Source of the DNA: Candidatus Woesearchaeota archaeon
Lineage (GTDB): Archaea > Nanobdellota > Nanobdellia > Woesearchaeales > JABIAG01
Direction: 5' to 3'
Length of the DNA: 64,000 nt
Assembly: GCA_018653365.1 (NCBI GenBank)
Contig: JABIAG010000001.1
Location: forward strand, 416,001 to 480,000
Part shown: positions 1 through 43,712 of the stretch, in pieces
Position numbering within the stretch: the stretch's first letter is position 1
Layout of the letters: every line of letters begins with the position of its first letter
Position numbers and translations under genes: made by a program
Notes under the pieces: generated by a model
What the model was told of the DNA's origin: nothing
Seen by the model: the letters and a program-made list of their open reading frames with translations, nothing else
Database searches by the model: none

Positions 1-1311
1 AAGCGTTGTTTTTAATCTTAGACTTTTTAGTTCTTTTTTAATGTTTGGGATTACATCAATATTTGTGTATCCGTTTAGTTCAAGGACTTCTTTTAAATGT
101 TTTAATTTGTTTCGAGCAGGATGAATGTGTTTAGCAAATGTTCTTAAACTTTCGCCTCCAATAACTACTACTGTGTAAAACCATCCTTTTTTGTGTATTG
201 TTCGGCCATTAACTTGTGTGAATTCATCACAATACCTGGATCTGATTGATGAAATTATGTTTTCTCTGAGTAATAGTTTTGAAATATCTTCAGCTAAAAC
301 CTTGCTGGTTGTACAAAACCCGGTAGAATAAACTCTGTTGTTTTTAACTTCTAAATAACCATCCCCATCTAAATACCCACTTAAAAATTCAAAAACACAT
401 TCCTTTTTTAATCTAAATATAAACGAGGGTAGTTTAGATATTCGCGATTTTCGACCTTTGATAAATCCCAAGTTTTCTAAGAAATTAACCAAAAAAGAAG
501 AGGTTAAACCAAGAGTTGTGGTTCCGTTTTGATTTATTTTCTTCCAGGGCGATCTTTCAAATATTTTTTTAATTAGTTTAAAATAGTACTCAAGAACTTC
601 TTTATTCTTGTTTGAGGCATATAAATCCCTATGGTTTATGTATCCCTCTGCAAGTGAAAAACCCAATAACCGCATAAATTCTTCATTAATTCTTATTTTA
701 GGAAATGAACTTTTATCAGACGAAATTCGCGTTATTTGTTTAAATATGTCTGTTTGTTTTATTTTAATTTGTTCTGTTAACCTGTTAAGTATTTTAAGTT
801 TAAACTTGTATTCGCCGTTCAGTGCAGATCTTAATTGAGAATAAGAAAGATCTTCTTTGAACTGTTTTTCCCATAAATCTTTTATTGATCCAAACTTTTT
901 TATAATACTATTTTTAAGTTGTATTCGAAACAAACTATTTATTTCAGCAAAGCCTGTTTCAGGATAGTTCTTATATGTGTATTTAATTAATTCTTCATTT
1001 TTAAGTTCTTTAAATTTATTTTTTCTGATAAGTGCAATGAAGTCACCTTTTTTAAATTTGATTGCTTCTTTCCAACATAATTCTGAATTTTGAATTGTGA
1101 GAAACTTGTGGTTTTTTGTGCAAGCAATTTTTCTTCCTAAATTGCTTTCAATTTTTAAAAGTTGTTGTTGGTTTCTAGTTTTGAATTTGTTTAATATTGT
1201 CTCATTACTTAACTTTAAATTATTTAAACTTTGTACTTTTTGTTTTTTTAGATTTTTAATCTCAATCCATTCACCGTTAGAATTTAATATTTTTGTGTTA
1301 CCTTCAAGACA
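1..1311 (-). mobile_element. Intein with LAGLIDADG (DOD) homing endonuclease in Lhr; C-terminal splice junction lies outside the window
   Basis: The frame switches from extein LKAVV to CLEGNTKIL (block A, Cys codon 1311-1309). Block B IACTKNHKFLT follows, then endonuclease motifs LLGFSLAEGYI and FLSGYLDGDGYL. Confidence 0.9.
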
Positions 1312-2316
1312 AACCACAGCCTTAAGCTTACCGGCTTTCAAATTATTTTCTAATTTAAACCTGTGTTCTTTAGATAAACTGCCATGATGGGCACCGATAA
1401 GACTGGTTGCATCATCACCTTCTAAAGTATAATTTTTAGGAAACTTATCCTTTAAATGATGAACTACCCTTTCCGTAGCAGCCCGAGTGTTAGTAAAAAT
1501 TAAGGTTGTTCTATGTTTTTGAATTAGATCATCTATTAATTCATACATTTTTTGATGTAAATTTTCCTGAGAAATATTTATTAAATCCTTAACAGGACTA
1601 ATAACCTGAAAATCATACTCTTTAATGAATTGGACATCAACAATCTTACACTCGCGAGTTCCAACTAAAAATTCAGCAATACTTTCTAAAGGCGCAACAG
1701 TTGCGGAGAGCCCAACTCTGGTTAAACCTGGAGCAAGATATTGTAATCTTTCTAATGACAAAGAAAGATGCACTCCTCTCTTGTTTTCAGCTAAACTATG
1801 AATTTCATCAACAATACACCACTGTACACTACGAAAGTTTTCTCTAAACTTTGGAGAAGAAAGCATGATGGCTAAAGATTCAGGGGTGGTGATCAATATG
1901 TGGGGAGGACTTTTAGCAAGTTTAGCCCGTTCATACTGAGTGGTATCTCCTGTTCTTAACCCAACTCTCACCCCTTTATTCTTCATTTCTTCTAAAGGTT
2001 CAAGAAGATTTTTTTGAATATCATTAGAAAGAGCTTTAAGCGGTGAAAGATAAACACAATAAATTTTATCTTCTAATAACTTTTTTTCTTCAAGATCTAT
2101 AAGTTCATTTAAAATAGCACCAAAAGCAGAAAGTGTTTTTCCTGAACCTGTTGGAGCTGAAACTAAAACGTTTTCACGACTATGAATAGTGTAAATAGAA
2201 TACTCTTGCGGAAGAGTAAAATCTTTAAATTTAGTAAAAAACCATTTTTTAAAAGTAGGATTTAAAATATTAATGATCCTTTTTTTTGGAACTGGTTTGG
2301 TTAGGAAGGTTGCCAT
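1..2316 (-). CDS. lhr: ATP-dependent Lhr-like helicase, intein-containing (5' part; runs off the left edge; absent from the ORF track)
   Basis: Manual translation from ATG at 2316: MATFLTKPVPKK..., Walker A APTGSGKT, YLSPLKALSND, RTGDT, ITTPESL, DEIH, GLSAT, IFTNTR, AHHGSLS, LKAVV, then intein. Confidence 0.93.
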   Translation of the reverse strand, partial: MATFLTKPVPKKRIINILNPTFKKWFFTKFKDFTLPQEYSIYTIHSRENVLVSAPTGSGKTLSAFGAILNELIDLEEKKLLEDKIYCVYLSPLKALSNDIQKNLLEPLEEMKNKGVRVGLRTGDTTQYERAKLAKSPPHILITTPESLAIMLSSPKFRENFRSVQWCIVDEIHSLAENKRGVHLSLSLERLQYLAPGLTRVGLSATVAPLESIAEFLVGTRECKIVDVQFIKEYDFQVISPVKDLINISQENLHQKMYELIDDLIQKHRTTLIFTNTRAATERVVHHLKDKFPKNYTLEGDDATSLIGAHHGSLSKEHRFKLENNLKAGKLKAVVCLEGNTKILNSNGEWIEIKNLKKQKVQSLNNLKLSNETILNKFKTRNQQQLLKIESNLGRKIACTKNHKFLTIQNSELCWKEAIKFKKGDFIALIRKNKFKELKNEELIKYTYKNYPETGFAEINSLFRIQLKNSIIKKFGSIKDLWEKQFKEDLSYSQLRSALNGEYKFKLKILNRLTEQIKIKQTDIFKQITRISSDKSSFPKIRINEEFMRLLGFSLAEGYINHRDLYASNKNKEVLEYYFKLIKKIFERSPWKKINQNGTTTLGLTSSFLVNFLENLGFIKGRKSRISKLPSFIFRLKKECVFEFLSGYLDGDGYLEVKNNRVYSTGFCTTSKVLAEDISKLLLRENIISSIRSRYCDEFTQVNGRTIHKKGWFYTVVVIGGESLRTFAKHIHPARNKLKHLKEVLELNGYTNIDVIPNIKKELKSLRLKTTL

Positions 2317-3301: not shown

Positions 3302-6300
3302 ATGAAAGACAATAACCTATGGTTTCATGTCTCTGTATTGCTAGTACTTATTATATTTCTAGTTTCATTTGGAACACACCTAAACTTCGTCGGTAAGACT
3401 ACTCATATACTTGGAATGTTTGTGGATGGAGAGTTCCAAGATAATGTAGATAAATGGTACGAATCTAATAAAGTATACTTGTGGAGTCCATCCTATAATG
3501 TGAACCTTCACGGAGTTGCGTTGTCTGGAAACGTATCTGGAACAGGAGAGGTCAAAACATATTTAGTTCATGAACAAGAACAATATCTGATAAATTCTTT
3601 CACCGTAGATAATGAGGTAGTACGTTTTGATGAATCCTGCACAGAAACCTGTGATTTAGGGGGGTTAGAATCTAAAAAATATTTGCTAAGATTTGAAATA
3701 GCTGGAGATGTACGTTACCAAATAAATTCTATTAAGTATTCAAGTAGCTCAATTATTGGACAAGAAGAAATCGTAGACCGTTTCTCCCCAACAACACCCG
3801 TTGAAGAATTAGTTGATGATTTAGTTCTTGAACTTGAGGGAACTGAAAAAGCAATCCCTGAAGACATAACTGTTAGTTTTAAGAATGAATTGGGATATGA
3901 ATTGTCTGCCCAAAAAACAAAAAGACAAGACGGCAAGTTTGACTTGGTATTTGGCGAAGAAGCTCCTGCATTCGGAGCAGCATCTGAAAGTCCAAAATCA
4001 AAAGTAACTGTAAAAGGATTGACCAAATCAGTAAATGCAAAGCTGGGCACTCTTGAAGGAAAAAATACAGAAGTTTTTGCAATGGATCACGTAACCGTGG
4101 ACGAAGCAATAGTTACACTAACAAAGACTGGCGAAGTAAACGCGATACAGAAATGTGACGAGTTTGACGTAACTGGATTTAGTTGTAATTCTGGCTGGTA
4201 TGAAACTAATCTTGACTTCACAGATAATGGGGCCACCATAACATTCACAGTTAATTCTTTTAGTGGATATGCGGGAATAAATTCATCATCACAAACTAAT
4301 TCTGAATGGATAATGCAAGGAAGATTCTTAAATCATACTGGTTATTATCCTGAATCACTGAATATATCTTCATTAAGTAATATGTGGACATATTCTACGG
4401 GAAGTTCTTTATCTGAAGGGCCTGCAATAAAAGATGGCGTTGCATACTTACCTGCAAATGATCAAAAATTACACGCAATAAACTTAACAGACGGTGAAAA
4501 AATTTGGGAGGTACCTCTGGTAACCTCTTCACAAGCAAGACCTGCATTGGTAAATGGAGTACTTTATTTTGGAAGTGCAACGGGAATATTCTATGCAATA
4601 AACATAACCGATCAATCAGAGGTATGGAATTTTTCATCACCAAACCAGATAAGAACTAGTGCTGCAGTTGTTGACGGAAAAGTGTTCTTTGGATCAACAA
4701 TGGAAGAGTACTTTGCACTAAATCAAACAAACGGAGAACAAATCTGGAACAATTCACACAGTGTTGGTGTTGGAGGCGCTTCATCCTCCCCAGGATATAG
4801 CGACGGAATGATCTTTTATGGAAGTAGGGGAAGAAAGTTTTATGCAGTAAATGCAACAAATGGGGAACAAATCTGGAATCAAAGTGGTTACGGATATGAT
4901 TTAGCCAGTACCCCCCTAATTGTTAGAGACGAAGTTTTTTTTGGTGCTTACTTACAGGTATACTCATATAATAAAACCAATGGGGATTTAATCTGGAATT
5001 TTTCTAAAAGTAGTAATTATTTTCTTGCAGGCCTGGCAACAGATCAAGAAAAAATTTATGCAGGTTCTTATGATGATAAATTATATGCATTAAATATAAC
5101 AAACGGTGAACAAGTATGGAACTTCTCAGCCGGAAATAACATTTACGCAACAGCAACAACAACACCAACAGAGGTAATTTTAGCAGCAAACAATTCAGTG
5201 TTTATTATTAATTCAACAACAGGAGAACAAATCTGGAATTACACAATACACGATACAACTCAAGCACAACCCGCGATTGTGGATGGAAACTTGTTTGTGG
5301 CATCAGAAAATGGCGATTTATATGCGTTTGGAACTGTTATTGATTACACTCCTGATACAACTTCATACAATCAATCTTCAGAAAACCAATCAGAATGGTG
5401 GATGTTTGGAAAATATTTGAATCACACAAGTTGGGATGGAGTAAGTTATCCAACTGTGAGTGGATTGAACCGAGCTAATTTTACAGCGACAAATAATTTT
5501 TATAGCGGAATAGCCGTTGCTGAAGGCGCAGTATATGCTGGAAGCTGGGATAAAAACGTATATCGGTTTAATGCAACTAATATTTCCCTGACTGAAACGA
5601 GTTTTTTAACTGGAGGAGTCATTTATACTTCTTCGCCAGTTATTGTTGAGGGTTTTGTTTATGTTGGAAGTGATGATGGTCGTATTTATCAATTAAATTC
5701 TAGTACTATGGTACAACATGCTAATTTTACTACCGGGAACCAAGTGCGTTCCAGTCCTGCTGTTGCTAATGGATATGTTTATGTTGGAAGTAATGATCAT
5801 AATGTTTATCAATTGAATGCAAGTAATGTTTCTATACAATATGCGAATTTTACTACTGGGGGAACTGTTTATTCTAGTCCTGCTGTTGCTAATGGCTACG
5901 TTTATATTGGAAGTGCGGATAATAATGTTTATCAATTAAATGCGAATAATGTTAGTATTCAGTATGCTAATTTTACTACGCCGGACCAACAATATTCGGG
6001 ACCTGCTGTTGTTGATGGATTTGTTTACGTGGGAGGTTCAGATTTTAGCGAAACAACAGGTCATATTTTTAAATTGAATGCGAGTAATATTTCCATACAA
6101 TCTTCTAACTTTACCGTCTTAAATGGGATTTTTACTTATTCATCCCCCACAATTGTTGAGGACTCAATTTACATTGGAAATACTGATGGAACCATTTATC
6201 AAATAAATAAAACAACTATGAATCAAACAGCTAATTTTACTTCTGGAGACAGCATTCAATCAGCACCTGCTGTTGCGGACGGATTTGTTTATGTTGGAAG

Positions 6301-41321: not shown

Positions 41322-42125
41322 ATGGTGGATGGCAGACATATTCAACCCAATACTGTTAGTGATGGGTGGGCCAAAAGATTTGCACGATCTTCCTCTGGAT
41401 CTTATAAAATAAAACCGCATGTTGATTATGAAAAAATTGCATTAAGTGTGGTTAAAAAAGTGGGTGATTTAACTTCTGGAATGTTTTTAGTGAATGGATT
41501 ATTGGGTAGAACGGGAATAGAGCTGATTGCACTAACTGATTTTGAACCTAACACTTTGAAATCAATATATGGTTTGTTGAAAGCACATCCTCCCACGGTA
41601 CAAATGGCATATGCACAAAAACAAAAACTTGATAATGTTTGGTTAAATTTCAAACAGGATGAACTGCCAGTAACCTTAACAATGATTAACCAGAGAGCAA
41701 TAGATGCATTAAAAGGATTGAATCTTGATAATACAGGATATGTGAGATGTATGGAAACACATGTTGGCGGACAGACAGTAAAAGAAAGAGAGTTATTGCG
41801 AAATTTACGTGGAGGAAAGAGAGAGTGTGTATTTCCCTGCAAACAAGTTCAGGGAGAACTCCATTGCGGACATGGAGTTGCACATTTTGAGGATGGAGAG
41901 GTATATGTTGGACAACCATTGTTGCCTTTCTTATTAGGACCTGAAACTTTGGTGGAAGGAATATTGACTGATGCAGGAGATGAAATAAGAAACAATTTAA
42001 GAACGGCATTAAGAAAAACCTATGGTGAAAGTTCTGATAGAGTATCTTTAGTAAACGCACTTCCACGAATGACTCAATCACGATTAAACGCTTCTACAAG
42101 AAAATATCTGACTGAGTTTTTCTAA
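41322..42125 (+). CDS. Hypothetical protein
   Basis: 267-aa ORF with upstream TATA; no recognised family. Confidence 0.6.
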   Translation: MVDGRHIQPNTVSDGWAKRFARSSSGSYKIKPHVDYEKIALSVVKKVGDLTSGMFLVNGLLGRTGIELIALTDFEPNTLKSIYGLLKAHPPTVQMAYAQKQKLDNVWLNFKQDELPVTLTMINQRAIDALKGLNLDNTGYVRCMETHVGGQTVKERELLRNLRGGKRECVFPCKQVQGELHCGHGVAHFEDGEVYVGQPLLPFLLGPETLVEGILTDAGDEIRNNLRTALRKTYGESSDRVSLVNALPRMTQSRLNASTRKYLTEFF

Positions 42126-42174
42126 TTATGAAAAGTTTTCAATAAATCCGCAGGATTTTCGAAAAAGTGTCATT

Positions 42175-42214
42175 AAAATTTATTAACGTTCATAACCTTT
42201 AATTGCTATGAACG
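42175..42214 (+). promoter_or_regulatory. TATA box plus 8-bp inverted repeat covering the endonuclease start codon
   Basis: TTTATTAA at 42179-42186; CGTTCATA (42187-42194) is the exact reverse complement of TATGAACG (42207-42214). Confidence 0.55.
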
Positions 42215-42834
42215 CTAAAAATTTTTATTCACCTTATTTGGCAGAAATTCTTGGATTGTTGTGTGCTGAAGGCCATCACGCAATAGCTTATTCAAGTTAT
42301 TGGAGTCTTGATCGCGGTAAACCTCGTTTTCGTAAAAACAAAAGGTCAGAAAGAATCGAGATTTATAGTAAAGATATAAAACTTTTAAACCATTTTGCGT
42401 TTCTTGTAAAAAAACAGTTTGGTTATTTTCCAAACATAACTAAAGATAATAAAATATGTATTGCTAGAAAACAGGTTATGCGTGAGATAATTTCGCAAAC
42501 AGAGCTTGGTGTATTAAATTGGACAGTTCCCGGTTTTGTTTTCACGAGTAATAAAAAAACAAAATATGCTTTTATTAGAGGTTATTTAGATGGGGATGGC
42601 ACGGTAATAAATAATGTTCGTTTTTTCTCTTGTAATAAACCAGGTTTATTAGCAGTTCAAATATTGTTATTTTCTGTGGGTTTTAAAACAACTTTACAGG
42701 GTCCCATCATTAAACCTAAAAGGAAACCTGCTTATGTTCTTCAATTAACCAGAAAACAAAAAGAAACCTTTTTAAAGATAATAAAACCGATTAGTAAATG
42801 TGCGGGTGCTGTGCATCCAGCTATGCGGGGGTAA
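42208..42834 (+). mobile_element. Free-standing two-motif LAGLIDADG homing endonuclease gene overlapping the 5' end of tRNA-Leu
   Basis: Motifs LAEILGLLCAEGH and FIRGYLDGDGTV; no intein splicing blocks; stop codon at 42832-42834 lies inside the tRNA. Confidence 0.88.
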
Positions 42835-42953
42835 TTAAAATCTCTAGAGCAAAGTCTGGTTAAATGCGCAGGACTTAAGAATGCGACACTCAATACTGAG
42901 TTGAGATATCCTGTCGCTTAGTGCGTTCGTGAGTTCAAATCTCATCCCCCGCA
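42825..42953 (+). tRNA. tRNA-Leu(TAA) with two introns: 42833-42847 (15 nt, position 8/9) and 42880-42907 (28 nt, canonical 37/38)
   Basis: Acceptor GCGGGGG/CCCCCGC+A; D arm GCA..TGC; anticodon stem CAGGA/TCCTG with TAA at 42876-42878; long variable arm; T arm GTGAG-TTCAAAT-CTCAT. Both insertions fit bulge-helix-bulge geometry. Confidence 0.9.
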
Positions 42954-42986
42954 TTTATTTATTTTTTTAATAAGAATCAAATAAAG

Positions 42987-43712
42987 TTATCTTCTGTTAA
43001 CTCTTCGCTTACATCGATCATACCGTAACCCAAAATATGTATTAAATTCGTTAGCAGGCAATAAACTAACTTGTTGCTGTTTATATCTAGCATTTGGATA
43101 AAACCTACTGACTAATTCCTTTTTGACCTCAACCCTACTTCTTCCCAGTGTTAATGTTGGACAAATTTGAAGTGCTTTACATGCATCTAAAAATACTCTT
43201 GCTTTTCTGAAAGAATCACAATCAGCATAACTCCAGGGCGTATCAAGACGAAATTTATTTCTTACGTCCCTTTCAGGCATAACCTCTCCTGCTTTGTAAA
43301 CTCTAAATCTAAGCATTGCAGGGAGAAATTCTGTTTCAACAACATTCATCTCTCTGGGTTTTAGGCCTGTTTTTAATTTTTGAAGGGCAGTTTTGAAGAC
43401 ATCATCTGTGTGATCTGTGAGTTCGGTGCGATATTCATAAGAGAATCCTTCAAATTCAATTGAAATTGTATGATACTGTTGCTTGACTGTTGAAATACGG
43501 ACAAGACCTGTTAATGGTTCAAGACCGATCTTTGATCTAACTATGTTGTCTAAGAAGTGGGGGAATTCCTGCTTGCGACGTTCGGCCAATTTTTTACTGG
43601 CTAAAATTTCAGCTTGGTATTTAGTAAAATATTCGCGATCAGCAGGACTCATAGCAGCAAGCCTGTCTTCTTCATAATCTTGCCATGCACTTTCAAGTTC
43701 CTCGGGAGTCAT
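42987..43712 (-). CDS. Hypothetical protein
   Basis: 241-aa ORF; no recognised motif. Confidence 0.6.
   Translation of the reverse strand: MTPEELESAWQDYEEDRLAAMSPADREYFTKYQAEILASKKLAERRKQEFPHFLDNIVRSKIGLEPLTGLVRISTVKQQYHTISIEFEGFSYEYRTELTDHTDDVFKTALQKLKTGLKPREMNVVETEFLPAMLRFRVYKAGEVMPERDVRNKFRLDTPWSYADCDSFRKARVFLDACKALQICPTLTLGRSRVEVKKELVSRFYPNARYKQQQVSLLPANEFNTYFGLRYDRCKRRVNRR

Follow-up and report, generated by a model that had tools for sequence, protein, structure and literature searches.

The 64,000 nt window analysed here (contig JABIAG010000001.1 of a Candidatus Woesearchaeota archaeon, positions 416,001 to 480,000; the source genome, G000, is 1.09 Mb) contains a LAGLIDADG endonuclease gene whose last codons are also the first nucleotides of tRNA-Leu(TAA). 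This gene is probably a free-standing homing element docked at the 5' end of the tRNA-Leu(UAA) gene, where it would cut intron-less alleles, with the short bulge-helix-bulge (BHB) intron between tRNA positions 8 and 9 acting both as self-protection and as passenger, the arrangement known as collaborative homing. The analysis establishes that the endonuclease belongs to a clade dedicated to tRNA-Leu(TAA), that it is linked to the 8/9 intron, that a predicted promoter is embedded in its open reading frame (ORF) and that the leader encoded by its tail covaries with the tRNA. A literature search, beyond which most subscription papers lay, found no description of such genes at DPANN tRNAs. The features of the locus, in window coordinates, are as follows; BRE denotes the TFB-recognition element.

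42124..42139, + strand: surviving part of the original tRNA-Leu promoter (the BRE with the first half of its TATA box), 5' of the endonuclease cassette
42179..42186, + strand: TATA-like box lying 29 nt before the ATG of the endonuclease, which it presumably serves; common to G000 and carrier genome G001
42208..42834, + strand: free-standing two-motif LAGLIDADG endonuclease ORF, 208 aa, tail residues 201-208 unstructured
42769..42776, + strand: predicted tRNA-Leu TATA box TTTTTAAA inside Phe-Leu-Lys codons of the ORF, preceded by a purine-rich BRE-like run
42797..42824, + strand: predicted pre-tRNA 5' leader, formed by the last ORF codons and pairing with D-arm, anticodon arm and 3' acceptor strand
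42825..42832, + strand: tRNA-Leu(TAA) exon 1 (G1-U8), overlapping the last ORF codons and the first stop base
42833..42847, + strand: 8/9 BHB intron, 15 nt, linked to the endonuclease (covariation, co-occurrence)
42848..42879, + strand: tRNA-Leu exon 2 (A9-G37), anticodon TAA at 42876-42878
42880..42907, + strand: canonical 37/38 intron, 28 nt, not linked to the endonuclease and near-identical in the endonuclease-free congener G002
42908..42953, + strand: tRNA-Leu exon 3 (A38-A73), CCA not encoded
42954..42968, + strand: T-rich run 3' of the tRNA, a probable terminator

The product of ORF 42208-42834 contains a PF14528 (LAGLIDADG_3) domain (E 3e-12) with putative catalytic residues E21 (42268-42270) and D130 (42595-42597), one in each LAGLIDADG motif; across 41 homologues, found in Woesearchaeota/Nanoarchaeia records, D130 is present in all and E21 in at least 90%. 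The AlphaFold model of the 208-residue protein (pLDDT 93, residues 201-208 disordered) has I-DmoI as its best PDB/Foldseek match (E 1.7e-10, TM 0.65/0.75), and the two helices with acidic residues and the two-domain I-DmoI-like fold are those of a monomeric LAGLIDADG enzyme, with site-specific double-strand DNA cutting as the putative activity. No intein or enclosing intron surrounds the ORF, which confirms the first-pass annotation in its view of a free-standing two-motif gene. The gene has its own ATG and TATA-like box, its mRNA is probably leaderless, and the ORF lies on the 5' side of tRNA exon 1, into which only its end runs; a location within a large BHB intron of the I-DmoI type was rejected, the upstream tRNA exon being absent at every locus checked. 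Values of dN/dS in the family (approximately 0.09-0.28) indicate purifying selection, and copies broken by an in-frame stop are present at L001, L018 and L032. In G001, for which the database protein P0001 reads TAG as glutamine, a nonsense mutation is preferred over recoding since the codon stands where homologues have a Trp-type TGG, although none of the 10 G001 ORFs checked ends in TAG, which leaves recoding in that genome a less likely possibility. Domestication of the WhiA or maturase kind was also rejected, given the retained catalytic acids, the 2% prevalence and the pseudogenes. An inverted repeat at 42183-42218 (z -3.7) spans the endonuclease TATA box and start codon and could mask the AUG in read-through RNA; a conserved regulatory role for this hairpin was discarded, as it is present at 3/22 loci only. 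A sigma-70 promoter scan was set aside as inapplicable to archaea.

Removal of both introns yields an 86 nt tRNA-Leu(UAA) with G1 at 42825, and the endonuclease stop codon, TAA, starts at U8 (42832), so that the overlap with the acceptor stem is as first described. The gene is missed by ARAGORN and Rfam because of its introns, and the locus in this way explains why standard tools overlook such tRNA genes; run without its intron option, ARAGORN reports only 12 tRNAs in G000, multi-intron genes such as tRNA-Leu(TAA) being missed. The overlap is not due to chance, because in every one of the 31 non-redundant members of the endonuclease clade for which the tRNA can be read, the ORF immediately precedes tRNA-Leu(TAA), with differing flanking genes. 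Recurrence of the overlap, which the first-pass annotation had made a test of its proposal, is evident in that 22 of these 31 ORFs enter the tRNA, while eight end earlier and are followed by a separate TATA box and one ends 4 nt before G1; in the protein tree the separate-TATA form is nested inside the overlapping form. When nucleotides 42833-42847 are removed the stop codon reads TAG, and thus termination does survive splicing here as had been proposed, but this is not a conserved requirement: the stop falls exactly at U8 in 9/22 overlapping loci and in the U8 frame in 13/22 (p ~0.01; 0.007 on 13/21), such that a stop at U8 is favoured and a strict rule was rejected. More distant clades, largely in Aenigmarchaeota, adjoin tRNA-Ser(GCT) or tRNA-Cys, and the protein tree groups by tRNA. 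In the Ser and Cys clades, the junction at the ORF end shows brief direct repeats of tRNA 5' sequence at L025, L028 and L030, and at L004 (genome G080) a second LAGLIDADG gene (4910-5623) is located just 3' of the same tRNA-Leu.

The contention that tRNA-Leu is promoter-less, with the sole clear TATA box lying 5' of the endonuclease, is contradicted by the TTTTTAAA box, located 56 nt before G1 (a comparable box is found ~33 nt before tRNA-Thr). Phe-Leu-Lys codons that spell this box are present in 18/18 scored homologues of the overlapping type and in 0/8 of those with a separate downstream TATA (p 6e-7), a division which implies that a nucleotide signal is selected beyond the protein. The tRNA thus has its own likely promoter within the 3' end of the endonuclease ORF, with transcription predicted to start near 42797-42802. 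In the predicted fold, the resulting leader (42797-42824) pairs so as to close the outer BHB helix at 8/9, the pair probability of the BHB being 0.74-0.85 with the leader and 0.0 without it, and on this modelling the leader is predicted to be necessary for the splice motif. The GC-rich protein tail is explained by the pairing of the leader with the D-arm and neighbouring arms. An anti-D-loop motif is found at 35/38 intron-bearing loci versus 6/21 intron-less ones, and leader and D-arm covary (p 2e-6), C16 facing G in 18/18 cases and U16 facing A (14) or G (5). The central helix is formed by G3-G6 and the 3' end of the intron, with covariation at position 4 (A-U 16, G-C 11, G-U 15, mismatch 0); the 4 bp helix between two 3 nt bulges with flanking helices that defines a BHB is present, and 32/38 loci have all four central pairs. 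G000 contains an RNase P RNA and a single EndA gene was found (177 aa, C1:14506-15036), by whose product the 8/9 intron is predicted to be removed. Strict motifs are reported to be needed by single-subunit splicing endonucleases (PMC5829648), for which reason the leader helix would be important.

Comparable leaders and motifs are found elsewhere. At seven loci (L003, L005, L006, L008, L014, L019 and L078) ~40 nt leaders between the ORF stop and the tRNA are piecewise reverse complements of their own tRNA's D-arm, anticodon arm and variable arm, and at L118, L121, L151 and L156, which have an extra intron near 30/31, the 37/38 intron begins with the anti-D-loop motif, placing the same helper inside a canonical intron.

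The association between endonuclease and intron was examined in a panel of 301 genomes of the order, of which 19 proved to have the 8/9-intron allele, the six carriers of the endonuclease all among them, and 129 the intron-less allele, none of them carriers. The intron is thus present in 6/6 carriers versus 13/142 non-carriers (Fisher p 2e-6; 5e-5 with genera collapsed), a test in which kin are not independent and the search patterns miss divergent alleles. Across the wider set it accompanies 30/31 endonuclease loci, the exception being L017. A link between the 37/38 intron and the endonuclease was rejected, since that intron is common in every group (23/26, 13/13, 15/20); the joint spread of introns and endonuclease first proposed therefore finds support in co-occurrence for 8/9 but not for 37/38, and only the former is, as in collaborative homing, an ORF-less intron of an adjacent gene that co-occurs with the endonuclease. 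A second D-arm match, a potential intact target in a tRNA paralogue, is present in 0/6 carriers versus about one-third of non-carriers, the carriers numbering only six. Among the intron-only genomes, two or three (L156, L161 and L165) have what look like convincing scars of a lost endonuclease, and the codon-like tails kept by a few are suggestive of former endonuclease genes; taken as a group, however, these genomes give a weak signal (p 0.04 for the downstream side alone, 0.17 for both together).

The distribution of the endonuclease fits a mobile gene, as first supposed: its six carriers are spread over five families, with same-genus or same-family relatives that lack it. In the congener G002, whose neighbouring proteins are 74-88% identical, the syntenic rps6e-tRNA-Leu site is empty and the 8/9 intron is absent. 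The site of the gene is hence fixed but not always occupied, some relatives having the cognate allele without it, as is typical of free-standing homing endonucleases, and the pseudogenes and purifying selection noted above agree with this. The segment at 42124-42139 is identical at 16/16 nt to the tRNA-Leu promoter of the empty G002 allele and is single copy in G000, which fits entry of the gene between the tRNA and the promoter that formerly served it; this part of the original proposal is supported, but the obligatory co-transcription attached to it is not, given the replacement TATA box inside the ORF. At tRNA positions 5, 9 and 13 and in the intron, G000 groups with G001, and between position 23 and the end of the variable arm it groups with G002, so that its tRNA is a mosaic with a boundary just 3' of the 8/9 intron, although the sites are few. 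Contigs from DNA sequencing runs contain the filled allele, and no credible joint skipping the endonuclease was found in them. A search of viral contigs for the endonuclease gave distant matches only.

We suggest that the endonuclease would recognize ~20 bp of the conserved 5' end of intron-less tRNA-Leu and cut near 8/9 when the DNA of another strain enters the cell, whereupon repair from the carrier would copy the endonuclease and the intron in one piece with the promoter and the leader. The 8/9 intron, by splitting the target site, would protect the carrier. The ORF tail would substitute for the displaced tRNA promoter and supply the leader helix for a strict BHB, with the intron being spliced before RNase P trims the leader. 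As the endonuclease mRNA must extend to U8-A-A, either splicing or cleavage by RNase P might restrict how much enzyme is made, and truncation of the message by RNase P is possible. After decay of the nuclease the intron and the promoter tail could persist, and intron-only genomes would be such remains. The wider proposition, which we regard as evenly balanced, is that the non-canonical tRNA introns of DPANN archaea owe their spread to free-standing LAGLIDADG nucleases, the present one cutting intron-less tRNA-Leu at its 5' end and bringing in, along with the intron, a new promoter and a leader that enables splicing, both encoded in its own coding tail, so that expression of a host tRNA would depend on the 3' end of a parasite.

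Several observations weigh against homing with the intron as protection. At L017 the endonuclease motifs are intact and the adjacent tRNA-Leu is wholly intron-less, while 13 genomes have the 8/9 intron without the endonuclease. The carriers are 45-63% identical and thus no recent transfer is shown; no near-identical endonuclease copies were found in distant hosts. The difference between G000 and G002 could be either a gain or a reversion. Even with the leader, the BHB is the dominant equilibrium structure in only 12/42 precursors (2/42 without it), and co-occurrence with the 8/9 intron could arise through linkage in an inherited cassette.

The leading alternative, which we think unlikely, is a homing endonuclease docked at the tRNA in the same manner but with immunity conferred by something else, such as sequence polymorphism or a site across the promoter-G1 junction, the 8/9 intron being a mere linked passenger that needs the leader of the cassette. 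In its favour, L017 is intact but intron-less, the tRNAs adjoined by the sister clades are either free of introns or interrupted at other positions, and the ORF-tail leader could on its own explain the 8/9 linkage. It is opposed by the lack of conservation 5' of G1 in naive hosts, which leaves the inside of the tRNA as the sole conserved target, and by the contrast between 1/31 intron-less carriers and 129/142 intron-less non-carriers. Still less probable is an old, vertically inherited cassette, now immobile after many losses, with the protein kept by selection because it acts as a maturase of the pre-tRNA or regulates the tRNA gene. Purifying selection on the endonuclease and its tight link to one intron would suit this reading, as would the sister relationship of the G000 and G001 endonucleases, the divergence of which is comparable to that of their hosts; a 2% prevalence across five families, however, demands very many losses, and the 13 intron-bearing genomes that do without the protein, the retained catalytic acids, the nonsense-broken copies and the four other free-standing LAGLIDADG genes of G000 at other tRNAs all speak against it. 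Finally, orphan ORFs at 41322-42125 (+) and 42987-43712 (-), without significant Pfam/NCBIfam matches and absent from the G002 site, flank the cassette and could mark a small integrative island that uses the tRNA as its attachment site and carries the endonuclease as passenger, but this is very improbable since the genes on either side vary from locus to locus, neither an integrase nor a duplicated tRNA 3' end was seen, the element is at the 5' end rather than the usual 3' end of the tRNA, and loci with the endonuclease alone, such as that of G001 between rps6e and the tRNA, largely refute it.

The proposed homing into tRNA-Leu, with the intron as protection, has partial parallels in several known systems. 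I-DmoI is encoded inside its own intron. The tRNA-Leu endonuclease resembles it and the LAGLIDADG enzymes of archaeal rRNA BHB introns in its monomeric two-motif fold and in the BHB intron of a stable-RNA gene, but differs in that its gene lies outside the intron, 5' of exon 1, and the identity to I-DmoI is only ~21%. In Thermoproteales and ARMAN, tRNAs contain non-canonical BHB introns, several per tRNA, with evidence for movement by an unknown mechanism (PMC4090602, PMC5829648); the present tRNA shares a non-canonical intron position and the multiplicity, whereas 8/9 is not among the positions named in the review text and the outer helix is predicted to need a 5' leader. Another parallel is F-CphI, a free-standing enzyme encoded adjacent to the ORF-less group I intron of psbA in cyanophage S-PM2, for which cleavage has been shown (Zeng, Bonocora and Shub 2009; PMC6083498). 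Both are free-standing endonucleases next to an intron-bearing conserved gene, with an intron that, on the proposed scheme, prevents self-cleavage and travels as a passenger. In the present case, however, the chromosome is that of a cellular archaeon, the enzyme belongs to the LAGLIDADG family, the target is a tRNA and the BHB intron, of 15-38 nt, is spliced by protein; the ORF, moreover, runs into the target, whose promoter and splicing leader it encodes, and the cleavage demonstrated for F-CphI is here a prediction. The seg/mob genes of phage T4, including SegB, are examples of 'intronless homing' (PMC2988022), and SegB is likewise an optional free-standing endonuclease in a tRNA region that favours inheritance of adjacent DNA, although it is a phage-borne GIY-YIG enzyme that targets a tRNA intergenic region and has neither partner intron nor embedded promoter.

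How archaeal tRNAs gain introns at odd positions, and how these spread, has been stated to be unknown (PMC4090602), and the locus provides an enzyme, a candidate target of ~25 bp and a pair of natural alleles, filled in G000 and empty in G002, that offer a testable route for the spread of unusual tRNA introns. If the proposal is true, collaborative homing would not be confined to phages but would also operate in cellular chromosomes and with mini-introns that are spliced by protein. The three-way coding overlap of protein, promoter and splicing leader would make the tail of the element hard to delete. The family further offers new nuclease specificities, its LAGLIDADG enzymes being compact and their tRNA targets inferable.

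Each of the five free-standing LAGLIDADG ORFs in G000 flanks a tRNA gene. The other four (contig C2:81834-81058, C2:126615-127457, C1:751722-751114 and C2:78189-79166) are outside the window, and their placements include just 3' of a tRNA, convergent into tRNA-Arg, 5' of a multi-intron tRNA and ending inside a tRNA 5' end. A 9-mer, CACTGGACA, often doubled, precedes TATA boxes by ~15-30 nt in the vicinity of several LAGLIDADG and tRNA loci; there are 14 copies in G000 (e.g. C2:81899 and C1:751835), none of them at the window gene, and it also occurs 5' of L002, L012, L019, L022, L027 and L080, possibly as a shared promoter or binding element. Helicase genes at window positions 1-2316 (-) and at G000 C1:237233-240238 have LAGLIDADG-containing insertions that are probably inteins.
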